From: Chlorobiota bacterium
Lineage (GTDB): Bacteria > Bacteroidota > Ignavibacteria > Kapaibacteriales > NICIL-2
NCBI GenBank assembly: GCA_026415505.1
Contig: JAOAGY010000032.1
Location: forward strand, 294,159 to 358,158
Reading direction: 5' to 3'
Length of the DNA stretch: 64,000 nt
Shown: positions 6,178-63,320 of the stretch, piece after piece
Layout of the letters: the number at the start of each line of letters is the position of its first letter
Position numbering within the stretch: the first letter of the stretch is position 1
Program-made: the position numbers and the translations under genes
Notes under the pieces: generated by a model
What the model saw: the letters and a program-made list of their open reading frames with translations, nothing else
What the model was told of the DNA's origin: nothing
Database searches by the model: none

Positions 6178-8073
6178 TCACTCCAGGTAGGTGTAGCCGT
6201 ACAGCCCCGACCGATACATTGCCAGAAATTCCTTCCCTTCGTGGAGCGTGACCAAATTCTCTTTGACCGCTTGCATCACCCACGTCTCCATCGTGCGCAC
6301 AAGACGCTTGGCGGAGAACTGCACGTAGTCGAGCACGTCTTCGACCGTCTCGCCTTCGATGATTTGGTCGATCCAATAGCTGTCTTCGTCGCAGACGATG
6401 TGAACGGCGTTCGTATCGCCGAAGAGATTGTGCAAATCGCCGAGAATTTCTTGGTATGCGCCGACCAAGAACACACCGATGTAGTACGGCTCCCCTTCCC
6501 GCAAGTCGTGCACCGACAGATAAGGCATCGTTTCGCGAATGCCGATGAACCGATCGATGCGACCGTCGCTGTCGCAGGTGATGTCGTGAAGTGTCGCACG
6601 TCGCAACGGCTTTTCATTGAGCCGCTGCAGCGGCATGATCGGAAAGAGCTGATCGATAGCCCACGAATCGGGTAGCGACTGAAACAGCGAAAAGTTGCAG
6701 AAATACTTGTCGGCGAGCAGCTTCGGCAGCACGCGCAATTCATCGGGAATGTGCCGAAATTCTTGCGCGTAGCGATTGACCGTCGTCGCGATACTCCAGA
6801 ACAATCGCTCGACTTTCGCTCGCGATCGAAGGTCGAACAATCCGAGCGCAAACAGTTCGAGCGACTCCTCGCGAAGCTGGAGTGCATCGTGCCACACCTC
6901 CATGATCGTGCGCGGCGAAACGTTGTTGAGCAGTGTGTAGAGTTCGCGCACGATTTCGTGGTCGTTCGGCTCGATCGTGTGGAGTGTGTCGTCCCACAGC
7001 GGCGTCGTCGCCGTTTCCAGCACGTTGAACACCAACACCGAATGGTGTGCAGTCAATGCGCGTCCTGCTTCGGTGATGACGTGTGGATGCGGCAGTTGAT
7101 GCTTGTCGGCGGCATCGAGGAGCGTAGCAATCGCGTCGTTGGCGTATTCTTGAATCGAGTAGTTGATGCTGCTTGCCAGCGTCGTCCGCGAGCCGTCATA
7201 ATCCACGCCCAAGCCACCGCCGATGTCCACGTATTCGATGGCACAACCGAGCCGGTGCAATTGCACGTAGAATTGAGCGACCTCGCGCAGCCCCGCTTTG
7301 ATTTTGCGGATGTTGGTGATTTGCGAGCCGAGATGGAAGTGAATCAATTTCAGCCAGGAAAGAATTCCCTCCTGTCGCGCCAGCTCGACCGCTTCCAGCA
7401 GTTCGCTCGCATTGAGACCGAATTTGCTTTGATCGCCGCCGGATTCCTCCCACTTGCCGCTGCCGCTTGCCGCCAGTCGTATGCGAATACCGACGTTCGG
7501 CACGACATTGAGCCGCCGCGCAATGTGAACGATGAGCTTCAGTTCGTTGAGTTTTTCGACGACGAGGAAAATTTTTTTGCCCATTTTGTGTGCCAGCAGC
7601 GCCAGCTCGATGAAGTCTTCGTCCTTGTAGCCATTGCAGATGATGAGTGCTTCGGGATTGTCCATGATGGGCAAAACGGCATGCAACTCCGGCTTGGAGC
7701 CAGCTTCCAAGCCGATGTTGAACTTCTTGCCGTAGCGGACGATTTCCTCGACGACCGGACGCTGCTGGTTGACCTTGATCGGGTAAACGTTGTAGTACTT
7801 GCCGTTGTAGCCGTACTCGGCGCGCGCGCGTTCGAAGCAGCCACTGATTTTCTCGATGCGATGATCGAGGATGTTCGGAAAACGCAAAAGCACTGGCGGA
7901 TTGATGTCCTTGAGCGCCAGTTCGTCCATCAACTCGCGAATGTCTATTGCCGGTCCGTTGTCCTTTCGCGGACGAACGACGACGTTGCCCTTTTCGTTGA
8001 TGCCGAAATAGCCGATACCCCAGCCGGCGATGTTGTAAAGTTCAGCCGAATCCTCGACACGCCACGTTCTCAC
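6178..8073 (-). CDS. speA: Biosynthetic arginine decarboxylase
   Basis: 631 aa. N-terminus MRTWRVEDSAELYNIAGWGIGYF and PLP-fold core (NVYPIKVNQQRPVVEEI...) match SpeA. The length is typical. Confidence 0.9.
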   Translation of the reverse strand: MRTWRVEDSAELYNIAGWGIGYFGINEKGNVVVRPRKDNGPAIDIRELMDELALKDINPPVLLRFPNILDHRIEKISGCFERARAEYGYNGKYYNVYPIKVNQQRPVVEEIVRYGKKFNIGLEAGSKPELHAVLPIMDNPEALIICNGYKDEDFIELALLAHKMGKKIFLVVEKLNELKLIVHIARRLNVVPNVGIRIRLAASGSGKWEESGGDQSKFGLNASELLEAVELARQEGILSWLKLIHFHLGSQITNIRKIKAGLREVAQFYVQLHRLGCAIEYVDIGGGLGVDYDGSRTTLASSINYSIQEYANDAIATLLDAADKHQLPHPHVITEAGRALTAHHSVLVFNVLETATTPLWDDTLHTIEPNDHEIVRELYTLLNNVSPRTIMEVWHDALQLREESLELFALGLFDLRSRAKVERLFWSIATTVNRYAQEFRHIPDELRVLPKLLADKYFCNFSLFQSLPDSWAIDQLFPIMPLQRLNEKPLRRATLHDITCDSDGRIDRFIGIRETMPYLSVHDLREGEPYYIGVFLVGAYQEILGDLHNLFGDTNAVHIVCDEDSYWIDQIIEGETVEDVLDYVQFSAKRLVRTMETWVMQAVKENLVTLHEGKEFLAMYRSGLYGYTYLE

Positions 8074-35911: not shown

Positions 35912-37570
35912 ATGGTCCTGCGGGTGCTCGTGTGTGTTGCAACGTGTGCGGCTACTGTCGTTGCGCAGGTGGTCATCAACGAAATGCAGCCGGTGCCACC
36001 GACCGGCGAACCGGAGTGGGTCGAGCTGTACAATCCCAGCGATAGCGACGTCACTCTGACGAACCTTTACCTCTACGATCGTACCTCGCGCGCATCGCTT
36101 GCGGGCGTGACAGTGCCGGCGCGAGGTTTTGCCGTGCTCACACGCGATACGGACGATTTGAAGCTCCTGCGCCGGATTCCACCCATCGCTCGGTTGTACC
36201 AAGTGACTCTGCCCTCGCTCAACAACACGACCGAGAGTTTGTTCATTGCCACACGGGACACGGTCGTGCTCGATTCGGTCTATTACGACATGCGTTGGGG
36301 CGTTCGTGGGCGAACGCTCGAGCGCATCGAGGCGCAACGCCCAGGTTACCTTCGAGACAACATCGCCGCGTGTATCGCTCCGGATTCGGCAACGTGTGGC
36401 TACGACAATTCGGTCAGTCTCGTCGAGCGCGACATGCGGGTACAGTCGGTGCGCGTGGATTCGGCACTCGTCGTCACTGTCCGAGTCGCAAATCGCGGGC
36501 GCACAGCACTTGCAGCGTTCGACGTTCGACTGCAACTGCGACGCCCGCGGTCTGCCGACTGGATCGAAGTGGGACAAATGTCGTTCGAGCAACTTCCACC
36601 TGCAGCGACATCCGAACGAAGCGTTGCACTTTCGAGCTTTCCGGCATTTGCGCATGCCGGCTACGGGCAGTACCTGCTCCGAGCACTTGCTGACCTCGGC
36701 GACGACCGTGCATGGAACGACACCGCTGAAACGCTCATGTTCATTCCGCTGCCGCGCGGAAGCATCGCCATCAACGAGATCATGTACGATCCTCTCGACA
36801 GTCGGAGCGAATACGTAGAGCTTGCCAATGTCACCGACGACACACTCGACATCGGCGGTTTGTCGGTGGGCGATGCAGTGCCGCCGAAATCGGTTTTGCC
36901 GAATTTGAGATTACTTCCTGGTGGATTTGCTGTCGTCGCACTCGACACCGGCATCTGGAACACGTTCCCTGAACTCCGGGGCGACGATCGCTGCATCGTC
37001 ATCAACGCTTCGTGGACGCTCGGCAATTCAGGCGATGCCGTCGTGATAGCCAATCCTGGCGGTAGCATTCTCGACTCGCTTGCCTACGAGTCGTCGTGGC
37101 ATTTCTGGGGCATCAAAGACACCAAGGGACGGTCGCTCGAGAAACTGCGTCCCGATCTTCCGTCTGCCGATTCGCGAGCATGGAGTACTTCGACCGATCG
37201 ACGAGGCGGAACACCTGCGGCACCGAACAGCATCGTTCCGCGCGACACCTCACGTGCAGAGCTATCGGCGACACCGAATCCGTTTTCACCATGGAGTACC
37301 GATCAGCGACTACTGCAAACGACAATCACATACCGTTTGCCGTGGTCCAGCGCACGTGTGACGCTGCGGATTTTCGATGCCGAAGGGCTTCCGGTTCGCC
37401 AGCTCGCCAATGGGCAGTACTCGGGCAGCGATGGGGTCGTGCTCTGGGATGGACGCAACGATGCTGGCTTTGCGGTCGGTGCAGGAGTTTATGTGCTGCT
37501 GCTCGAAGCGACCGATGCACGCTCGAGCGAAAGCATCCGTCAGACCATACCGATCGTCGTGGGACGGTGA
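35912..37570 (+). CDS. Secreted protein with two lamin-tail (LTD) domains and a T9SS/FlgD-Ig-like C-terminal sorting domain
   Basis: Signal peptide MVLRVLVCVATCAATVVAQ. LTD signatures VVINEMQP...PEWVELYN and IAINEIMYDP...EYVELAN. C-terminus ...GQYSGSDGVVLWDGRNDAGFAVGAGVYVLLLEA... is typical of the T9SS type-A sorting domain. Confidence 0.65.
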   Translation: MVLRVLVCVATCAATVVAQVVINEMQPVPPTGEPEWVELYNPSDSDVTLTNLYLYDRTSRASLAGVTVPARGFAVLTRDTDDLKLLRRIPPIARLYQVTLPSLNNTTESLFIATRDTVVLDSVYYDMRWGVRGRTLERIEAQRPGYLRDNIAACIAPDSATCGYDNSVSLVERDMRVQSVRVDSALVVTVRVANRGRTALAAFDVRLQLRRPRSADWIEVGQMSFEQLPPAATSERSVALSSFPAFAHAGYGQYLLRALADLGDDRAWNDTAETLMFIPLPRGSIAINEIMYDPLDSRSEYVELANVTDDTLDIGGLSVGDAVPPKSVLPNLRLLPGGFAVVALDTGIWNTFPELRGDDRCIVINASWTLGNSGDAVVIANPGGSILDSLAYESSWHFWGIKDTKGRSLEKLRPDLPSADSRAWSTSTDRRGGTPAAPNSIVPRDTSRAELSATPNPFSPWSTDQRLLQTTITYRLPWSSARVTLRIFDAEGLPVRQLANGQYSGSDGVVLWDGRNDAGFAVGAGVYVLLLEATDARSSESIRQTIPIVVGR

Positions 37571-37571
37571 A

Positions 37572-39908
37572 TCAACGCCCCGGGAGAACGATCAACGGAT
37601 ACGTAACAGTACGATTGCCGCTGGACCGAATCACGAGCATGTAAAAACCAGCGGCAACATCGCTCATATCGAGGGTCGTTCGCCCGATGCAGTCGTAGCG
37701 ACCAACGACACTACCCGTTACCGAATACAGTACCGCTTCGACTGCATCTGTAGTGGGCAGCCGAAGTTCCGACTCGACGACAAGTCCATAACTGGCTTTC
37801 GTCGCTTTTGCTTCCTCTTCGACACGAGAGATACCGGTTATTTCGATGCGAAGTATTACACCGTAATCGTCACTGCACCAAATCGTGCCGTCGGGCGATT
37901 TGTCGCAACTTATCCTACTCAGTGGCACACCTCTGGGTCGAGGTACAGGATACCAGCTCTTGCCACCATCGCCAGTGTAGATGAAACCAGAAGCGACATA
38001 GCCTGCCGACAGGGTGTTGATCCGTGGTGCCATTATCACACACCGAGAGGCATCTGCAAGTGTCAAACTGTATTGCTGCGCAGTCGGAATGTAGAGCCAG
38101 AATCCCACTAACTGGCGTGACCATGTCCATCCGCCGTCCGTAGTCAATAAAAGCCACAATTGGAGCGTATCGGGATTGTAAACCTGACGACGGATGCAGA
38201 CACCTATGACTTTGTCCGATACGGCATCGAAGGCAACTACTGTTTCATTTTTTTCATTTTCATTGTACGACAATGGAATTGTCGTCAGCTTACGCCACGT
38301 GATCCCGGAATCAACCGAAGAGTAAATGACGCCGCTTGCCTCGTCGGTACATAAAAGGGTATTGCCTGCACGCACGATACGCAGAGGAGCGAGTATCTCC
38401 AAAGTATCGTGTCGGCGCCACGATTGTCCTCCATCAGTGGAAATCCAGTAGTAAAATGATTTCGGTGAGCTACCACCATACGCACCAACACCGATGATGA
38501 CTCCAGGCGAAGCACTCAGGAGTTGTGTCAATATCCCCATATCGCTCGGTGGATCGGGAAGTGGTTGCCATGACTTTCCTCCGTCGCTGGTTCGGAAAAA
38601 CCGCATCGTCGGCGATACGCCACGGTGCTGGTAGAAAATACCGTTGGAGCGATCGGTGAATACAACGATCGTTGACCTGGCAACTGTATCGATCGGTATG
38701 CTTTGGAACCATGTCGTTCCTCTATCGTCGGTTTTCAATGCTACTGAGCCTAATCCCCACGCGACCACTGTACTATCGTCTATCGCTTGAATGCCGGTCA
38801 ACGTTTCTGTGCTGGGGATCACTTTTTCCCATGCGTTGCCGGGGCGTTTTCGGTAAACGCTTCCACGCTGTGTCGCAAACCACAACGTACCGTCCTTCCC
38901 TGCCGTCGCATGATACGCAATCGATCCAGTTGCTCTCCAGGTATAATCAATGAGTGCATTGGGGAGCCATTCGGGGAACCAAGTTTTTCCGCCATCAGTG
39001 GTCGTCATTACCGGTGGTGTTGTGTTTTGGTATCCACCGAAGAAATTCGCACCGCTGACAAAACCACGAGCCGAATCCAACCAGATGATGTTCTGCTTGT
39101 AGCAGTAGGGATATTCCTCTCCGAATTCAGCGATCAAGTCCCACGATCGTCCCCGATCGGTACTACGAAGCAAGGCTCCTCCCTCGGCATACCAAATGCT
39201 ACTATCCGAACTCTGGAAGAAGCGCTGCAGCATAAAGTCGTACATGCTGAATTGTGGTATTCGACGCGGTGGAGTCAGTGCTTGTTGCCACGTATCTCCT
39301 CCGTCACTGGTGAAGTAGATCCGATAGGTCGAATCCATCGGACTGAGGAGAACAACACCTTCTTGTCGTGAGAAAAAATGGAGGATAATCGGTCTTGTTC
39401 CGAGAGTACTGCGGGTGATCGTTTGCCAGCTTTTTCCTCGATCGGACGAGTGGAAAAGCAAGAATCCATCATTTTCTCCCTGAGCCGCAGCGAACCAGTT
39501 CTCTGAATCGAGAGCAAACAACGCAGTTACTTCTGTTGCACTATCGATGGTCATCGGACCGACGATCGAATCGCCGCGGAGCAACCAGACTCTCCTCGGG
39601 TACGAAGCAATGATCGTATCGTATGTACTTGTACCTATACCTTGAACATTATAGAACAATCCTCCGAGAGTGTCGGGATAAGAGAATCGCAATCGCACCC
39701 ACGTTTTCCCGCCATCGGTCGTGCGGAACGCATCGTTGCACAGTGATAGGACATTTAGTGAATCGCGCGCTAAAATCGGACCTCCGGTGTTGCCAGGGAA
39801 TGGCGGATTGACACGTTCTACTCTGATATCCGATCCCTGCGCAAGCAAAAGTGCCGCCCCAAACGCTGCTGCAACAGCGATACATAGTGGCATCCGAAAC
39901 AGCAGCAT
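37572..39908 (-). CDS. BNR/Asp-box repeat protein (about 14 repeats, probably two beta-propellers, GH74/sortilin-like) with a T9SS C-terminal sorting domain, in a low-GC island
   Basis: 778 aa. Signal peptide. Repeated S/T-x-D-G-G-x-T/S-W motifs (TDGGKTW, SDRGKSW, TDGGDTW, ...). C-terminal sorting domain (…GFYMLVIRSSGNRTVTYPLIVLPGR). GC is visibly lower than in neighbouring genes. Confidence 0.75.
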   Translation of the reverse strand: MLLFRMPLCIAVAAAFGAALLLAQGSDIRVERVNPPFPGNTGGPILARDSLNVLSLCNDAFRTTDGGKTWVRLRFSYPDTLGGLFYNVQGIGTSTYDTIIASYPRRVWLLRGDSIVGPMTIDSATEVTALFALDSENWFAAAQGENDGFLLFHSSDRGKSWQTITRSTLGTRPIILHFFSRQEGVVLLSPMDSTYRIYFTSDGGDTWQQALTPPRRIPQFSMYDFMLQRFFQSSDSSIWYAEGGALLRSTDRGRSWDLIAEFGEEYPYCYKQNIIWLDSARGFVSGANFFGGYQNTTPPVMTTTDGGKTWFPEWLPNALIDYTWRATGSIAYHATAGKDGTLWFATQRGSVYRKRPGNAWEKVIPSTETLTGIQAIDDSTVVAWGLGSVALKTDDRGTTWFQSIPIDTVARSTIVVFTDRSNGIFYQHRGVSPTMRFFRTSDGGKSWQPLPDPPSDMGILTQLLSASPGVIIGVGAYGGSSPKSFYYWISTDGGQSWRRHDTLEILAPLRIVRAGNTLLCTDEASGVIYSSVDSGITWRKLTTIPLSYNENEKNETVVAFDAVSDKVIGVCIRRQVYNPDTLQLWLLLTTDGGWTWSRQLVGFWLYIPTAQQYSLTLADASRCVIMAPRINTLSAGYVASGFIYTGDGGKSWYPVPRPRGVPLSRISCDKSPDGTIWCSDDYGVILRIEITGISRVEEEAKATKASYGLVVESELRLPTTDAVEAVLYSVTGSVVGRYDCIGRTTLDMSDVAAGFYMLVIRSSGNRTVTYPLIVLPGR

Positions 39909-39912
39909 AGTC

Positions 39913-40503
39913 TCAATTACAAACGACTCGACATTCAGGGTTCGGGTCGCAGTTGTACGTGCTACCAGGCTGGCATTGGCTTAACTGTCGACCAAACTTT
40001 TGTACTCTACGGCGTCCGTTTTCATAACAGACACGCCAATTCTGAATACAACACGTACCAGTCGGACACGGTAAATCGACTGGACCTTGCATAAAAGGAA
40101 CATCGTTACAGCGAGCAAAGCATGTCGAAAAACGCACTGTGATCGACCAATCGCATGAGTCCTGTGGTATTTTTTGACACGTATCCAACGGCAGAGGAGC
40201 ATCGGTCAGCAGAGACTGTACGATAATATCGTAGAGATCAGGTGTAAGTGGCGGAGGATTGCAACCTGTGCCAAGATATTGCACTGCATCGATTGCAATC
40301 ACCGAGCAGTCCAGTTGACCGTTGCAGATGAGTATTGAGAATGCAACTCGCAGTGTACATGGAGGTGCGATGATCATGTTCTCGTAGGTACTGTATTGCA
40401 TCCACATGCAACTATCGGGTGGCGGGCATGGTGCTTGCGCTTGGGCGAGCAACGGAGAAAGTACAAGCGCGAAGAGAAACTGTAATCGTCCGAGTAGTTT
40501 CAT
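39913..40503 (-). CDS. Secreted cysteine-rich protein (18 Cys in about 172 mature residues), no recognised family
   Basis: 196 aa. Signal peptide MKLLGRLQFLFALVLSPLLAQAQA. Cys and Pro rich. A strong AGGAGG Shine-Dalgarno sequence lies 9 nt upstream. Low GC. Lies 5 nt upstream of the BNR gene on the same strand. Confidence 0.6.
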   Translation of the reverse strand: MKLLGRLQFLFALVLSPLLAQAQAPCPPPDSCMWMQYSTYENMIIAPPCTLRVAFSILICNGQLDCSVIAIDAVQYLGTGCNPPPLTPDLYDIIVQSLLTDAPLPLDTCQKIPQDSCDWSITVRFSTCFARCNDVPFMQGPVDLPCPTGTCCIQNWRVCYENGRRRVQKFGRQLSQCQPGSTYNCDPNPECRVVCN

Positions 40504-40512
40504 CAGCTTTTT

Positions 40513-40552
40513 CCTCCTCAGGTAGTTTTACGTGCTGACACTTGTAAATATA
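40513..40552 (-). promoter_or_regulatory. Ribosome-binding site (GAGGAGG, 40513-40519) and an upstream AT-rich -10/-7-like element (TATATTT, 40546-40552) for the island operon
   Basis: Read on the minus strand: ...TATGCGTATATTTACAAGTG...CCTGAGGAGGAAAAAGCTGATG. A consensus Shine-Dalgarno sequence is unusual relative to other gene starts in this window. Confidence 0.35.
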
Positions 40553-40561
40553 CGCATAGTT

Positions 40562-40601
40562 TTCGTAAAAACCATAACGCATCTAACAGCACAATGCGCA
40601 G
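40562..40601 (-). terminator. Possible weak intrinsic terminator downstream of ribE
   Basis: Minus-strand GCGCATtgtgctgttagATGCGT followed by TATGGTTTTTAC. The imperfect 5-6 bp stem is followed by a T-run. Weak. Confidence 0.2.
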
Positions 40602-40694
40602 GCACAGTGAAAGCTTCAACATACGTTGCGAAAGTGCCCCGTGTAGCTGTTTGGCAGTATCGATTGGAAAAATGTTCCGTCGAGAACTCTTGTC

Positions 40695-41285
40695 TCACCT
40701 CGCCCGCAGCAATCCTTCGACGTATTTGGCGATGATGTCGAATTCGAGATTGACATCGTCGCCGACATGGCGGAACTGCAGCGTTGTCTGCTGCCACGTA
40801 TGCGGAATAATTGCAACCATGAAGCGATTGCTGTCGGCTCGCGCAACTGTCAGACTGATGCCATCGAGCGCGATCGAACCGAGTGGCACGACGTAGCGCA
40901 TTTTTTCTGACGGACATTCGACCCACACCTGCCGTTCTGTGCCCGAGTGTTCCAGCATGACGATACGCCCGATCGCTTCGACATGCCCGGTGACGATGTG
41001 CCCGCCGAGTCGTGTCGTCGGTCGCACGGCACGTTCGAGATTGACGCCATCGCCGACAGCAAGCCGACCGAGCGTCGTTTTGCGCAGCGTTTCTTCGACG
41101 GCGATCACACGGAACCAATCGCTGCCCCGCTCGACGACCGTTTGACACACGCCTTGCACCGCGATCGAATCGCCGATTGCAAGATCGTCCAACACTTTCG
41201 ATGCCCCGATTGTCAGCCGCCGAGAGCCGCTGCTATCGGCGATATCTCGAATGGTGCCGATTTCCTCGATCAATCCGGTAAACAT
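40695..41285 (-). CDS. ribE: Riboflavin synthase (alpha chain)
   Basis: 196 aa from MFTGLIEEIGTI. Two lumazine-binding repeats (…GDSIAVQGVCQTV…, …GSIALDGISLTV…). Confidence 0.85.
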   Translation of the reverse strand: MFTGLIEEIGTIRDIADSSGSRRLTIGASKVLDDLAIGDSIAVQGVCQTVVERGSDWFRVIAVEETLRKTTLGRLAVGDGVNLERAVRPTTRLGGHIVTGHVEAIGRIVMLEHSGTERQVWVECPSEKMRYVVPLGSIALDGISLTVARADSNRFMVAIIPHTWQQTTLQFRHVGDDVNLEFDIIAKYVEGLLRAR

Positions 41286-41327
41286 TGTGCGGTGTAATTT
41301 GGGCGTTGAACATACGCAGCCGTACCG

Positions 41328-44300
41328 ATGGCATATATCCTCGCCAACACTGCAGCATCGCGCCTTCTCGGCACCGTCGAACGTTTCATGAGCGCCGATG
41401 GTTTCGATGGAATCGACTTTCTCGAAGAACACTTCTCGACGTTCCCACCGGAACCGCTCTGCTACGTCGTTCCGACCGGTCGTCGCGTGCGGTGGCTCGT
41501 GCGCGAAATTAGTCGGCGCGTCTTCGAACGGACCGAGCGCCCGTTGGTCGGCTTCCAGCCGTTCAACCTTGCCAAACTCGCGGCATCGCTCCACGCGCGG
41601 TTATATCCCGACGACACAGCATTGCCGCTTTCGGACTCGCTACGCATGGCGCTGTTCGAGCGCGCTATCGAACAGCTCGCCGACGACGGACGTTTGCCCT
41701 TTTATGCCCCCAACGGAAAACCATCGTGGAGCATCATCGAACGACTCGCCAGCGTCGTCACTGGTTTGCGCGAAGACGGTATCACGCCGAACGATCTTCG
41801 CCGCGATTTGGAGCAGAGCGACGATCCTCTGGCGCTCGACCGCCATCGCCTTGCCGACGTGCTGGCTATTTACGAACGCTACATCGAGCTGCTCGGCGAT
41901 CGCTACCACGACGAAACAGCTCTGCTGGAGCGTACAGCCGATGCTCTGCTCGCCGGCAGGGAGATTACACATCCGCCGATCATCATCGAAGGCTTTTCGG
42001 AGTTTCGGCTCCCCGAGCTGCGTATGCTCGGCGCATTGGCAGTCGCACGAGTTCCCGTCTGCATCGTGCTCGCCTACTCGCCGGTCAATGGTCCGCTCTT
42101 CGGCAACCTCGACGAAACATTCGAACGGCTTGTGCAACTCGGTTACACGGCACGCTCGTTCGATCCCGCAAGCAACGATGGCACGCCGATCTGGCATCGC
42201 CCGCGGACTGCCTATCTGCGACGGTGGCTTTTCAACACCGAGCAAGAAATCCGCAACGCGGAATTCAACGATCAGCTCACCATACTCGGCTGCACCAATC
42301 GGCTCGAAGAAGTTACGCTCATCGCCAAGTACGTCAAACATTGCATCGTCGAACGCCGTATCGAGCCGCACCGCATCTGCGTCGCCATGCGCGATCCGGA
42401 GCAATATGCCGGATTGTTTCGCGAGTTGTTCGCCGTGCACGGCATACCGGCAAACATCAGCGATCGTTTTCGGCTCGATCGCTCGCCGGTAACGGTTTCG
42501 GTGATGTCAGTCCTCGAACTGATCGTTCGCGGATGGCGACGCGAGGACGTCCATCGGACACTGTCGAATCCGCTCATACGCTGCATGCGCCCGGATGGCT
42601 CGCCGCTCGATGCAGCGACGATCAATGCGGTGGCGGAACGTCAGCGCATCAGCGGTGGACATGCGCAAGGTGGAGCACGTGGCTGGATCGAGCGTCTCCG
42701 CCGCGGTTTGGAGTACGCGCAGAATTATCTCGAACTGCTGCGCTCGCAGCCGTACACCGATCCGCTCGATCTCCGCGAAGCAGAACAGGACGTCGAGCAA
42801 CTCAAACGCGCACTCGGCGACATCGAACACTTGATCAAAGTGCTGCCATCGCACGAACGCCGCATGACGACGTCGGAATTCTGCGCTTTCGTCCGAGATG
42901 GCATCCTCGATCGTTTCGGCATTGCAGCGAGCGTCGAAGAAGCTGCCGTACTGTCGTGGAAACTCGACAAGCGCACGCTCGACGACATCGCGCTCGCCGA
43001 AGTACTCGAACAGCAAACCAGAGCCTATGCTGCATTGCTCGACGTGCTCACCGAAATCGAGTACGCATGGAACGATCGCAGCGCTCGTCCGTTGCAGGAA
43101 CACGTCGAGCTTCTGGCGACGATGCTGCGCGCCGAGCGTTACCAAATCGCCGAAAAGCCATCGTACGGCGTCACCGTCACCTCGATCGAGCAAACACGCG
43201 GCATTCCATACGATGTGTACGTGCTCTGTGGGATGGTGGACGGAGAATTTCCTCGTGCGTATTCGACGGAGCACTTTCTCGGCAAAGAGCTGCCGCAAAG
43301 CGAGGAACGACACATTCGCGCCGAACGCATTCAGTTCTACGAAGCACTGACGAACAACCCTGCAGCGCTCGAACGCGGCTCGTGGCGGATGCTCATCACG
43401 TATCCGCGCTTGACGACCAGCGGAGAGCAACTTGTGCGGTCGTCGTTTGTGGACAAGCTGCTCAAGATCACGACGCTCGCCGAGCGATGTTTTCTCTCGC
43501 ACGAACTTGCCGCACACGCAAGCCAACACGACGGTTTGCCATCGGAATTATCCTGGATGCTCACGATCACCTCGCCCGAAGAGCGCCAGCGCATCGAACC
43601 AGCCGAAAGCGACCGGCAATGGGAACCCATCGCCGATGTCCAGCTCGATCGCGAGGCATTGCAGCGTATCGCTCCGCTGACAGTCCACCCGTACTCGGCA
43701 GCCGAGTTGGAGCAGTATGCACGGTGTCCGTACCAGTACTTTGCGCAGCGCATTCTGCAATTGCGTGAGCCGACGACCTACGATTTAGCGCTCGGCAATC
43801 TCGAAAGCGGAGCACTCTTTCACCGGATACTGTATCGCTTCTATCGAACCTTGCTCGATCGCGAGGGCAAGCCCGATGCAAGCGGTCTGCGTACCGTGAG
43901 TCTCCAGCCAAGCCGTCGCGACGAATACTGGTCGCTGCTGCTCGATTGCGCACGTTCCGAGCTGGAGCGATTGCGCCACAGTCATCCGCTTTTCGCGCTC
44001 GAATGCGAACTGATACTCGGCACCGACGAGCGACGCGGAATGTTAGCCGAGTGGCTCGATCGCGAGCTCGAACGATTCGATCAAGGTTGGGAATACGAAC
44101 CAGCGCTGCTGGAAACTGCATTCGGCATGCCGAGCAAAACGCCCGATGCACTCGAAGAGCCGATCGCTTTGACGCCGACGCTGTCGATTCGCGGAAAGAT
44201 CGACCGTATCGAGATCGCTCGACGCATCCAGCGTCTGCACGTCGTCGTTGCCGATTACAAGCTCACCAGTCCCGGCTCGAACAATACGGCGATTTCCGAA

Positions 44301-44781: not shown

Positions 44782-45291
44782 ATGTCACTACAGGTTGCGC
44801 TGTTTTTCCTGTTCGGTATCGGTGCGATCGCAACGGCGATAGGAACGATCACGCGACGCAATCCGGTCGCTGCTGCGGTCAATTTGATCGCGCACTTTTT
44901 CATGCTCGCCGGTCTCTACCTCACGCTCGAAGCACAACTGCTTGCGGTGCTTCAAATTCTCGTCTATGCCGGCGCAATCATGGTGCTGGTCGTGTTCGTG
45001 ATCATGCTTCTCAACTTGGGCGACGACCGAGCGCTCCGCGAGCAGTTCACGGTGCGAAAAGTCGTCGGTGTCGTGCTGGCTGCAATGTTCATGCTCCAAG
45101 TCGGCGTGTTGATCAATGCGCAGCCGACAGGTGCGACGTCGCTCGCGCCGACGGCAGCATCGCTCGGCACCGCCGAGAGCATCGGACAGGCACTGTTCAC
45201 GCAGTACCTTTTCCCCTTCGAGGCGATTTCATTGCTGCTCCTGGCTGCGCTGGTGGGAGCAATCATCTTGGCAAAACGCAAAGTCGAATAA
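44782..45291 (+). CDS. nuoJ: NADH-quinone oxidoreductase subunit J
   Basis: 169 aa. Five-TM pattern with [22 protein letters not shown], typical of NuoJ/ND6. Confidence 0.8.
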
Positions 45292-45304
45292 CCTGGCAAT
45301 TCCG

Positions 45305-45619
45305 ATGAATCTGCAGAGCATTCCACTCGATTGGTACTTGATCGTCGCAGCGGTTCTGTTCACAATCGGCGTCGTCGGTGTCGTCACACGGCGCAATGCT
45401 ATCGTCGTCTTCATGGCGATCGAGATGATGCTCAATTCGGTGAACTTGGTGTTCGTCAGCTTTGCGCAGTTCCTCGGCGACATTGCCGGACAAATCTTCG
45501 TGCTCTTTGTGATGGCAGTCGCTGCAGGGGAAGCTGCTATCGGGCTTGCAATCGTGCTGGCGCTGTTTCGCAACAAGCGCACCGTGTACGTCGACGAGGT
45601 AAACGTCCTCAAATGGTGA
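45305..45619 (+). CDS. nuoK: NADH-quinone oxidoreductase subunit K
   Basis: 104 aa. [48 protein letters not shown] is typical of NuoK/ND4L. Confidence 0.85.
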
Positions 45620-45661
45620 CACGAGACACCGCAATCACGGCGGTGTATCGAGCAGAGGTAA

Positions 45662-46050
45662 GATGCCGAAACAAGTTCGGCATGACTACAGAGAGAACCG
45701 TCACCCTGAACTCGTTTCAGGGTCCCGCCGCATTCCTTGTCACCCTGAACTCGTTTCAGGGTCTCGTCCCCATGTGCAGGAGATGCCGAAACAAGTTCGG
45801 CATGACTACAGAGAGAATCGTCACCCTGAACTCGTTTCAGGGTCCCGTCTCCACGTGCAGGAGATGCCGAAACAAGTTCGGCATGACTACAGAGAGAACC
45901 GTCACCCTGAACTCGTTTCAGGGTCTCGTCCCCACGTGCAAGAGATGCCGAAACAAGTTCGGCATGACGTAAGCGGAATGTCACCCTGAACTTGTTTCAG
46001 GGTCTTTCCCCCGACGTGCAAGAGATGCCCAACCAAGTTCGGCATGACGA
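45662..46050. repeat. Tandem array (about 4.5 copies) of an 80-81 bp composite unit containing two distinct perfect 8-bp-stem hairpins
   Basis: Hairpin A is ATGCCGAAacaagTTCGGCAT, starting near 45662, 45782, 45863, 45944 and 46024 (the last copy degenerate). Hairpin B is ACCCTGAActcgtTTCAGGGT, starting near 45700, 45739, 45820, 45901 and 45980. Intervening segments are conserved (tacagagagaaccgt; tcgtccccacgtgcagg), so these are not unique spacers. Confidence 0.85.
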
Positions 46051-46209
46051 GCACAGCCACTAAATCCATTCGATTCAGCGCTGATTTCATAACTTGCATC
46101 CCGCACTGACACGCAGCATTTCCGCTACTGCCTGCATTCAGTGACACCGATCGGCTGCCCCGCCGCAGATGCAGGCGGTGGAATCGTATCCATTCGGAGT
46201 ACCTTCGCT

Positions 46210-47836
<1,627 letters not shown>

Positions 47837-47862
<26 letters not shown>

Positions 47863-48316
47863 TTTGCTGCTGGCTGTCGTCAGTGCCGGTGCGCAACAAC
47901 GGGATAGCATCGTGCATTTCTTTGCGCTTCCGCTGGACACCAGCATCGCAATGCCTGCGCCGGCAATCGAGCGCCTGGATTCTTCGGGCATCGCCATCAT
48001 CGACATCGCATACGGTAAAGGCGAGCTGTCCGATCCGCGTCGCATGCACTACGTTCGATTTCTGATCAGCAAAGCTTCGACGCTGGAGTACGCATACACC
48101 GAGTTCGCCGGCAATCGTGTGTTCGCCTTCGTTCCCGACTCGACGAACGTTTTTCCAGGCTTCCGCTACGCACTGCGCGGCATGCGTGTCGGCGGGCGAC
48201 GACGTGCGATCGTTCCCCCCGAACTCGCATACGGGAGCAAAGGACGCGCAGCATATGGCATCGGTCCGAACGAAACGCTGCTGTTGGATTTGGAACTCCT
48301 CAAGCTCGACCCATGA
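47837..48316 (+). CDS. FKBP-type peptidyl-prolyl cis-trans isomerase, secreted/periplasmic
   Basis: Signal peptide MRWIVLASSLLLAVVSAGAQ. FKBP-like C-terminus (…GMRVGGRRRAIVPPELAYGSKG…NETLLLDLELLKL). Overlaps the pyrG 3' end by about 26 nt. An alternative start exists at 47828. Confidence 0.65.
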
Positions 48317-61457: not shown

Positions 61458-62234
61458 TTACTTGATCTTGAAGATGATCGGGATGGTCACCCACACGTCG
61501 ATGGGGTTGCCGTTTTGGATCGCCGGTGTGAACGTCGTCGCCAGCACAGCCTTGAGCGCAGCGTCGTTGAGCATTTCGCTCGGCGAATCGGCGACGAATG
61601 CACGCTTTGGCTTGCCGTCTTTGCCGACGAGAACTTTCACGACGACTTTCCCTTCGATACCGGCGCGGCGCGCAATTTCGGGATACTGAACGCGGCGCTG
61701 CAAGTCGGCGTAGTCGAATTCCGGTTCTTTTTCGACGAACACGAACTCATCGGGATCGGGCTCTTGCTCTTTTTGCACGCGGGCATCCGGCGCGATAATG
61801 GTCCCGTCGCCGATGCCGAATCCACCCATATCGACGCCTTCACCACCTTTCGACGTCGCACGCGCGACATCTTCGACGTTAGCGAAATCTTTTGCGTCCG
61901 GCGAGAGCAACGTTTCAGGAACAGGCACCGGATTGCCAGCGACCGTCGGCGGTCCGCCAGCGATGGCAACATTCGTTGGTGGCGGAGGCGCTACTTCCGG
62001 TTGATTCGCTGGTGGAGGCGGTAGGTCGGAAAGTTTGATGCGAACGACAGGAATTTTCGGTTTGAGTGCCAGCGCGCGTTCGTGAAGGTAATTGTACACG
62101 AAAAAGCCGAGAAAGAGCAACAACAAAAGCAGCAACGCAATTCCGAACGCCCGGTAGGTGTATCGCCGGATCCACTCCTTCAGTTCGAAAGCGCCGTAGG
62201 TGCGTTGCGGCACTGTGACTGTGGCAATTGTCAT
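61458..62234 (-). CDS. tonB: Energy transducer TonB
   Basis: N-terminal TM anchor, a Pro-rich spacer (PPPPANQPEVAPPPPT) and a C-terminal TonB domain (…GIEGKVVVKVLVGKDGKP…). Confidence 0.8.
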   Translation of the reverse strand: MTIATVTVPQRTYGAFELKEWIRRYTYRAFGIALLLLLLLFLGFFVYNYLHERALALKPKIPVVRIKLSDLPPPPANQPEVAPPPPTNVAIAGGPPTVAGNPVPVPETLLSPDAKDFANVEDVARATSKGGEGVDMGGFGIGDGTIIAPDARVQKEQEPDPDEFVFVEKEPEFDYADLQRRVQYPEIARRAGIEGKVVVKVLVGKDGKPKRAFVADSPSEMLNDAALKAVLATTFTPAIQNGNPIDVWVTIPIIFKIK

Positions 62235-62236
62235 CG

Positions 62237-62794
62237 CTATAGCCCTTTGAGTTTTTCGACTTCTTCTGGGCTGAGCTTGACGAACGCGAACTTTCGTTCA
62301 CGTTTGAGACCTTCCGCTTGCAATTGACGAATGATCTCGGCTTCAGCTTGATTGAGAATGTCGAGAACCTGAACGACCGCGCCGTACGGTGCATCGGGAG
62401 ACGGTTTGAACGCCGTGATGAGTTTGTTTTTACGCAGCAAGTTCAGCTCGACTGCTTTCGCGCGCAGTTGGCTGTACTCGATCGGTTGTGGATCGTCGGC
62501 GCCCATGCTGAAAAAGAGCTTACCGTCTCCGCGTACATAGAGCGTAAAAAGGTTCGCTTGGTTGACTTCGACGTTTTCCTCGACTTCCTTCGGCACGCTG
62601 ATCTCCATCACTTGCGGTGTGACCATCGTGGTCGTGTACATGAAGAACGTCAGCAGCAAGAACACGATGTCCACCATCGGCGTCATGTCGATGCGGAATC
62701 CGACGCGTTTTTTCTTTTTGCGTTTGCTGTGCTTTTTACCTCGTCGCTGCCGTTCGGGGAGTTCTAAACCGCCACCGCCGCCTGCCATGTGCAC
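62237..62794 (-). CDS. exbD: Biopolymer transport protein ExbD/TolR (copy 2)
   Basis: 185 aa. Motif IDMTPMVDIVFLLLTFFM at the TM helix. Confidence 0.85.
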   Translation of the reverse strand: MHMAGGGGGLELPERQRRGKKHSKRKKKKRVGFRIDMTPMVDIVFLLLTFFMYTTTMVTPQVMEISVPKEVEENVEVNQANLFTLYVRGDGKLFFSMGADDPQPIEYSQLRAKAVELNLLRKNKLITAFKPSPDAPYGAVVQVLDILNQAEAEIIRQLQAEGLKRERKFAFVKLSPEEVEKLKGL

Positions 62795-62816
62795 GTGTTA
62801 GGATGAGTTCGACAAA

Positions 62817-63320
62817 TCACTGGCGTTTTTCCGTCACGAAGTTGAACGCAGTCGCGTTGTTTTTGCGAAGGACGTCGATGGCATCCTCGATCCATTTGTA
62901 GCGGATACGACGATCGCCATCGATAGCGAATCGTGTACGAGGACCGGTGATACGCGTCTGCATGATGAGCTGATCGAGCAAATCGAGCCCGACTTTGAGC
63001 TGCGGTTTGCGCTGCTCCGGTGTGAAGTTGAGATTGTCGTACACCTGCCGCCGCTGAATCTCGTTGATGATCGTGTAGTAGTAGCTCGTGTCGCCACTGA
63101 GCGTGTCGATGCCGACCTTGATGATCGCGAGGTCTTTGTCGGGGAGTTTCGACGTGTCCGCCGAGGCATACGGTCGCTTGATGACGAACTTTTGCTCGGC
63201 TTCGGCTTCGCTCTTGAATTTGGCGGTGAACATGAAAAACGTCAGCAAAAGAAACGTCACGTCCACCATCGGCGTCATGTCGATGACAAAACCGAGCCGC
63301 TTTTTCTTGATCTTGGGCAT
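62817..63320 (-). CDS. exbD: Biopolymer transport protein ExbD/TolR (copy 1)
   Basis: 167 aa. Motif IDMTPMVDVTFLLLTFFM. Confidence 0.85.
   Translation of the reverse strand: MPKIKKKRLGFVIDMTPMVDVTFLLLTFFMFTAKFKSEAEAEQKFVIKRPYASADTSKLPDKDLAIIKVGIDTLSGDTSYYYTIINEIQRRQVYDNLNFTPEQRKPQLKVGLDLLDQLIMQTRITGPRTRFAIDGDRRIRYKWIEDAIDVLRKNNATAFNFVTEKRQ

Follow-up and report, generated by a model that had tools for sequence, protein, structure and literature searches.

The DNA analyzed here is a 64 kb stretch (contig JAOAGY010000032.1; called "the window" throughout, at its whole length) from a Kapabacteria-like bacterium of the Chlorobiota/Ignavibacteria group. Between the genes for a lamin-tail-domain (LTD) protein and riboflavin synthase (ribE), the window carries an inserted segment of 3,124 bp, hereafter the islet, with two genes for putatively secreted proteins. 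An earlier note, made from the letters of this DNA, had proposed a horizontally acquired secreted-protein cassette, and composition, synteny and a phylogenetic tree support that proposal. The islet was very probably gained horizontally and inserted on the lineage leading to this bacterium, which would thus have been the recipient. The features referred to below are as follows.

37571..40694, no strand: islet (inserted segment), replacing the 17-70 bp spacer found between the convergent LTD and ribE stops of relatives
40504..40694, minus strand: non-coding leader of 191 bp, AT-rich, part of the islet, read from the sequence
40513..40519, minus strand: Shine-Dalgarno (SD) site GAGGAGG, 9 nt upstream of the ATG at 40503
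39913..40503, minus strand: gene 1, predicted secreted cysteine-rich protein of 196 aa with a signal peptide, 18 Cys and no known domain
37572..39908, minus strand: gene 2, 778 aa, with a signal peptide, a BNR/Asp-box beta-propeller region and a C-terminal beta-sandwich (Pfam, profile and Foldseek matches)
37575..37811, minus strand: C-terminal domain of gene 2, ~79 aa, with weak matches to type IX secretion system (T9SS) type-A domains
35912..37570, plus strand: LTD protein with a FlgD_ig-like C-terminus (Pfam), left flank, a core gene outside the islet
40695..41285, minus strand: ribE, riboflavin synthase (NCBIfam NF006767, 234 bits, cutoff 155), right flank, outside the islet and upstream of its genes

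Composition and boundaries of the islet

GC content was profiled along the window in 400-bp sliding steps, and dropped from ~0.60 to 0.475-0.525 over ~37600-40800, then returned to ~0.59. Among the 64 one-kb bins, the three spanning 38001-41000 had the lowest GC (0.502-0.515). The islet as a whole had a GC of 0.505 vs. 0.585 for the remaining window (z = -4.9 when set against every other 3.1-kb window, the lowest of which had 0.552). Strand-symmetric tetranucleotide usage was ~12 standard deviations off, with an L1 distance to the rest of 0.42 (mean 0.17, maximum 0.23 elsewhere). GC at third codon positions (GC3) was 0.45 and 0.52 in the two islet genes vs. 0.59-0.76 in other credible genes. 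Leave-one-out synonymous-codon likelihood ranked the same two genes as the worst-fitting of 36 for pooled synonymous codon usage, and as this misfit lies at synonymous sites, the compositional difference is not merely a matter of amino-acid content. The low-GC island noted earlier by eye was therefore confirmed as a sharply bounded dip, significantly atypical in composition and codon usage. The flanking genes do have higher GC than the islet, as the earlier note stated, but at ~0.59-0.60 rather than over 60%; the A/T run that it quoted is present, and is the reverse complement of the NENEKNET codons at ~38245-38270.

Low GC could also have arisen with no transfer at all, through native constraints that the repeats, amino-acid composition or expression level of these genes would impose. 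Repeat-rich secreted proteins can be compositionally odd, and GC at second codon positions was normal in both genes (0.51 and 0.48), as such an account would allow. The deficit was nevertheless present at third and first codon positions and also in the 191-bp non-coding leader, tetranucleotide usage departed as far as given above, and the neighboring LTD protein, which is also secreted, was compositionally normal. As the segment is in addition missing from all five syntenic relatives described below, an origin in native constraints alone was judged extremely unlikely. Milder secondary GC dips (~0.53-0.55) were seen at positions 45200-47200 and 62000-63000 of the window. Open reading frames at 45229-45984 and 46318-48045 had no Pfam match, and the first of these is partly conserved in relatives (residues ~116-235).

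The islet genes are co-directional, both on the minus strand, and adjacent, as the earlier note had it, although the gap between them is 4 nt and not 5 nt. They are read as a two-gene operon, in which the second gene is probably translationally coupled to the first. The GAGGAGG site occurs only once on both strands of the 64 kb, and its distance from the ATG falls within the 5-10 nt of an SD-led start; the shorter AGGAGG occurs three times on both strands. The site had been described as a consensus ribosome-binding site unseen at other starts, and it is unique in the window, with weaker SD-like motifs at a few other gene starts (e.g., GGAGGT before the start at 8073). Such motifs are otherwise scarce at gene starts here, which fits a Bacteroidota/Chlorobiota-type organism making little use of SD sites, and because of this scarcity the strong SD site of the islet marks foreign origin. 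An AT-rich stretch ahead of the genes had also been reported correctly: the leader holds a TATATTTA element at ~40552-40545 that resembles the Bacteroidota -7 promoter motif and may act as a promoter. A scan for the sigma-70 consensus found no match in the leader, and promoter and intrinsic terminator counts were no higher than in shuffled sequence. An Rfam scan of 37000-41600 (e.g., for a flavin mononucleotide riboswitch near ribE) returned nothing at E ≤ 1.

At the other end of the islet, the LTD stop (ending at 37570, plus strand) and the stop of the 778-aa gene (ending at 37572, minus strand) are 1 nt apart (window 37568-37574). No terminator-like hairpin lies between these stops; the convergent transcripts would have to overlap or end inside each other's coding region.

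Absence from relatives and route of insertion

To place the islet among relatives, the LTD protein was searched in species-representative genomes and in metagenomes. The genomes gave Chlorobiota metagenome-assembled genome (MAG) SKW269 (L005, 73% identity), Candidatus Kapabacteria KatS3mg040 (L006, 68%) and Bacterium HR20 (L007, 68%), and two metagenome contigs (L085 and L086, 64-66%) were among the matches listed in the metagenome scan. The LTD protein and RibE are each 64-73% identical in these five relatives. The gene order o568, amidohydrolase, ligA, GAF, LTD, ribE, addB was kept in all five, and in each of them LTD and ribE are convergent and directly adjacent, with stop-to-stop spacers of 17, 70, 69, 53 and 33 bp as determined from the aligned last residues. 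The adjacency without the insert that the earlier note had proposed to look for is therefore present in five relatives, with the stops 17-70 bp apart. DNA alignments to L005, L006 and L007 place the boundaries exactly: homology extends to the LTD stop (37570) and begins again from the ribE stop (40695), the insert leaving LTD and ribE unaltered. No paralog of either islet gene was found elsewhere in the window.

A neighbor-joining tree was built for the six taxa from the concatenated LigA and 1008-aa protein sequences, and rooted at the midpoint. The topology, ((window,L005),L086),(L006,L085), places the window as sister to L005 and nested among relatives. As these relatives are free of the islet, a single gain on the window branch is the simplest history, and the gain would have followed the split from the nearest sampled relative. 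The alternative is that the two genes were ancestral at this site and lost in the relatives. The tree leaves some room for this, with six taxa and a midpoint root, as a root on the window's own branch would need only a single loss. With the window nested, however, the genes would have to have been lost independently three times or more, with a clean spacer of 17-70 bp left behind each time. In ancestral genes, GC3 and codon usage should also resemble those of the host, yet these two genes are the most atypical of the 36, and the islet is far younger than its flanks between strains (see below). Ancestry with loss was accordingly considered very unlikely.

Signatures of mobility were sought in and around the islet. 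Atypical composition and codon usage, and presence here with absence from the same site in relatives, are features that the islet has in common with classical genomic islands. No tRNA or tmRNA was found in the whole window by ARAGORN, and there were no direct or terminal inverted repeats and no target-site duplication at 37571 and 40694, so that the search for flanking direct repeats suggested by the earlier note came back empty. The only repeat families found were Asp-box codons and chance short matches. Neither the islet nor its Pfam-annotated neighbors (24-54 kb) contained an integrase or transposase; several neighbors are without any Pfam match. Neither islet protein matched PHROGs or PADLOC, and the cysteine-rich family had no relative in 2.9 million viral contigs. 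The islet is, as observed, a cassette without recognizable mobility machinery.

Morons are typically small, AT-rich cassettes that bring a promoter and an SD site of their own, and the islet could on that general likeness be a moron or a decayed element, i.e., remnant cargo of a phage or mobile element. The empty viral and defense-family searches speak against such a remnant, as do the missing integrase and att-like repeats, and no mobility genes adjoin the homologous gene pair found in another genome (L165, below). Cargo of this kind was judged a very improbable source. In the absence of tRNA, repeats, integrase and phage families, the initial event of the favored horizontal gain is best described as illegitimate recombination into the convergent-gene spacer. 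Foreign DNA would have taken the place of the short spacer between the LTD and ribE stops, a position at which it disrupts nothing, and would have carried its own AT-rich leader and strong SD site.

The islet resembles known strain- and species-specific islets in its atypical GC, codon and tetranucleotide usage, its precise insertion between core genes, its absence from syntenic relatives, its lower divergence than the flanks and its accessory surface or secreted cargo. Classical islands differ in having a tRNA site, an integrase and direct repeats, whereas the islet has none of these and only two genes.

Strain comparison and assembly support

Independent assemblies were used to verify the junctions and to compare strains. 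The Joint Genome Institute (JGI) contigs L001 and L002, 98.4-98.7% identical to the window, run colinearly from ribE across the islet and both its junctions into LTD, GAF and ligA, and show no differences from each other over their shared sequence. Two Logan contigs, L003 (SRR27730024) and L004 (SRR27730020), carry the islet with the same allele as L001. Between the window and L001, the islet had 12 differences in 3,124 bp (99.6% identity), including 1 of 191 sites in the leader, which behaves like the remaining islet. The flanks had 90 differences in 3,040 bp (97.0%; islet vs. flank, Fisher P = 7e-17). The islet is thus ~8-fold less diverged than its flanks between the two strains. This contrast suggests that the islet coalesces far more recently than the surrounding core genes, and that it has been passed between strains or swept. 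Strains of the same species may have exchanged the islet after its gain, with homologous recombination in the conserved ribE and LTD flanks as the route, and such exchange would explain the ~8-fold lower divergence.

A dense cluster of strain differences from L001 was observed at window 40764-40989 (the 3' half of ribE), beside the near-invariant islet. Over the ribE region there were 27 differences in 582 bp (95.4%), with 22 synonymous vs. 3 non-synonymous codons, and the cluster may be a recombination breakpoint or an imported tract. In the propeller gene, 6 non-synonymous and 4 synonymous codons differed from L001 (LTD: 15 vs. 23), numbers too small to interpret, although a surface protein under relaxed or diversifying selection could show such a codon pattern.

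Mis-assembly, or a binning chimera with DNA from another organism, would also place foreign sequence between two native genes. The Logan contigs L003 and L004 break at most ~25 nt from the islet edges, a sign of assembly-graph branching. L003 corresponds to window 40721..37549 and L004 to 40721..37864; the two come from separate, independent sequencing runs and share their first base, 26 nt inside the 3' end of ribE; L003 stops 22 nt inside the 3' end of LTD. Such breaks are, however, expected if strains share the islet but differ in their flanks, and the branching hints at strain heterogeneity in the flanks or at presence/absence polymorphism. The JGI contigs, assembled independently, cross both junctions colinearly, the junctions fall exactly at stop codons, and the flanking genes are intact. 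The probability of a chimera was therefore regarded as almost negligible.

Several points count against horizontal gain with later spread among strains. With ~85% identity in LigA even to the closest islet-free relative, the gain can be dated only within wide limits. No conspecific empty site was seen among the matches listed in the LTD metagenome scan, and an exact look-up of the window's LTD and RibE proteins in a 153-billion-gene collection gave no record. With no mobility signatures, the mechanism of insertion is not visible. No donor was identified, and the only homologous gene pair has diverged too far, and at 37-40% its GC is too low, for it to have been the source. The divergence contrast is based on two alleles and ~3 kb of flank, and flanks that had received divergent imports would show it equally.

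The encoded proteins and their homologues

Similarity searches left both proteins as near-orphans, in answer to the earlier note's question of their taxonomic distribution: for each islet gene, the sole close relative among 5.8 billion clustered proteins was a 99%-identical metagenome copy, and the next match to the 778-aa protein in that collection was at 23% identity. An exhaustive phmmer search of 1.84 billion representatives with the 196-aa protein returned, besides the 99%-identical copy, only P0012 (43% identity) and P0013 (27%). A profile search with the four-sequence cysteine-rich alignment gave no further members. The cysteine-rich family is therefore very rare and unannotated: billions of sequences contain three clusters of it, and no fold relative could be detected.

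The 196-aa protein begins with a signal peptide (…LLAQAQA) as read from its sequence, with likely cleavage after AQA. In the four-sequence alignment, 11 of its 18 Cys are invariant across the family. The protein matched nothing in Pfam or NCBIfam, and comparison of the family with Protein Data Bank sequences and Pfam at E ≤ 10 gave nothing meaningful. On these sequence features, the protein is most likely exported by the Sec pathway, disulfide-rich and disulfide-stabilized.

The 778-aa protein likewise has an N-terminal signal peptide as read from sequence. It passed the Pfam thresholds for Sortilin-Vps10 (PF15902, 62.8 bits, threshold 33) and BNR (PF02012, 47.8 bits, threshold 27). Eleven canonical Asp-boxes (SxDxGxTW) were counted, and their spacing allows three degenerate ones, which would give ~14 blades in two propellers. 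A family profile was made from the 778-aa protein and its distant homologs and searched against solved structures, with matches to Ycf48-like propellers (3e-36) and GH74 xyloglucanases (6e-26). The AlphaFold2 (AF2) model was all-beta with a predicted local distance difference test (pLDDT) score of 63, and Foldseek matched this model to GH74 (2e-15) and sortilin ectodomains at TM-scores of 0.2-0.26 and 13-15% identity. The protein scored 61 bits against the NCBIfam glycosylhydrolase model of the F510_1955 family (cutoff 175). It failed the Ycf48 equivalog test (NF010237, 46.4 bits vs. cutoff 326). Identity as Ycf48/HCF136 was rejected, as a protein of 778 aa has about twice the blades of the ~330-aa seven-bladed propeller, and the likeness is of the propeller repeat only. 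Tli3, a type VI secretion system immunity protein, was also rejected, as its weak Pfam match (22 bits, cutoff 27) lies over an Asp-box and reflects motif similarity.

The tail of the 778-aa protein is probably a T9SS type-A sorting domain. The L165 ortholog gives a similarly weak match at the corresponding position of its tail (15.1 bits), the last ~100 positions of the family profile match C-terminal domain structures of gingipain R2 (8e-6), and in the AF2 model this region forms a seven-strand sandwich with pLDDT 70-82. Against it, the scores for TIGR04183 (17.9 bits, cutoff 23) and PF18962 (18.3 bits, cutoff 27) are both below the curated thresholds. The protein would then probably be exported via T9SS to the cell surface or medium. 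Of the earlier description as a 14-repeat BNR/Asp-box T9SS protein, the BNR/Asp-box part stands above the Pfam thresholds, the repeats amount to 11 canonical boxes with 14 as a likely total, and the T9SS assignment stays at the level of a sub-threshold tail.

Compared with known BNR double propellers (GH74, Ycf48/HCF136-like, Sortilin-Vps10), the protein shares SxDxGxTW boxes and an all-beta propeller of ~700 aa. It differs in its identity of 13-15% to any solved structure, its T9SS-like tail, and the cysteine-rich partner gene. GH74 xyloglucanases have two seven-bladed propellers, a cleft and two catalytic Asp; against the profile and Foldseek matches to them stand the TM-scores of 0.2-0.26, the 13-15% identity and the model's pLDDT of 63. 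With T9SS type-A cargo of Bacteroidota, Chlorobiota and Ignavibacteria, the protein shares an N-terminal signal peptide and a C-terminal beta-sandwich of ~80 aa, from which its own C-terminal domain differs in scoring below the thresholds. The neighboring LTD protein has a weak PorU-region/FlgD_ig-type C-terminus.

The pair is conserved elsewhere. P0012 is located in the Bacteroidota MAG GCA_019695345.1 (L165), and 60 nt downstream of it lies a 735-aa protein colinear with the 778-aa protein (26% identity over 522 aa, E = 4e-41). As a diverged pair stays together in a distant low-GC member of the Bacteroidota, the two genes are taken as a functional pair, a conserved two-gene module. GC is 40% over the L165 locus and 37% over the pair itself, so that the pair looks native there by composition. 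On the short P0013 contig, a gene for a signal-peptide protein starts 63 nt downstream and is cut by the contig end. The distant BNR homologs P0003, P0007 and P0011 (22-24% identity) have no cysteine-rich gene upstream, therefore the partnership is specific to the BNR778/P0015 subfamily. The 60-nt spacer at L165 10511-10570 holds a terminator-like hairpin (CCCTGCTCCAAACTTTGGAGCAGGG followed by a T run), compared with the 4-nt gap in the window, and because of this difference the stoichiometry of the products may be regulated differently in the two genomes.

Both products may cooperate outside the cytoplasm to bind or process a ligand such as a glycan, though a specific function of this kind is put forward only tentatively. 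A bolder proposal, considered improbable, is an undescribed two-component secreted module, split receptor- or adhesin-like, made up of the cysteine-rich protein and the BNR double propeller, in which a disulfide-knotted subunit would dock on the propeller. Such a module would move between distant lineages of the Fibrobacteres-Chlorobi-Bacteroidetes (FCB) group, to which the relatives of the window belong, as a self-contained operon without mobility genes, and the 196-aa protein would represent a new fold family. The Vps10 domain of sortilin combines a propeller with a cysteine-rich 10CC module, with ~10 conserved Cys in the module on its BNR propeller, whereas here a separate upstream gene encodes 11 invariant Cys. 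Searches by sequence and by structure detected no likeness between the 196-aa protein and 10CC (PF15901), or anything else, and gave no support to this analogy, which stays speculative.

As an event, the islet is an ordinary small gene transfer; islets encoding cell-surface proteins are common, and current understanding is not overturned by this one. New here are the conserved and diverged pair in Bacteroidota of 40% GC, the cysteine-rich protein with two other relatives and no recognizable fold, and the low divergence of the islet relative to its flanks, which suggests recent spread by recombination. The locus provides a clean, bounded case of accessory surface or secreted functions entering a thermophilic Kapabacteria-like genome without a recognizable mobile element. 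The islet apparently spreads among strains faster than the core genome diverges, and the genetic linkage of the cysteine-rich family to one BNR propeller subfamily provides a testable hypothesis of partnership.

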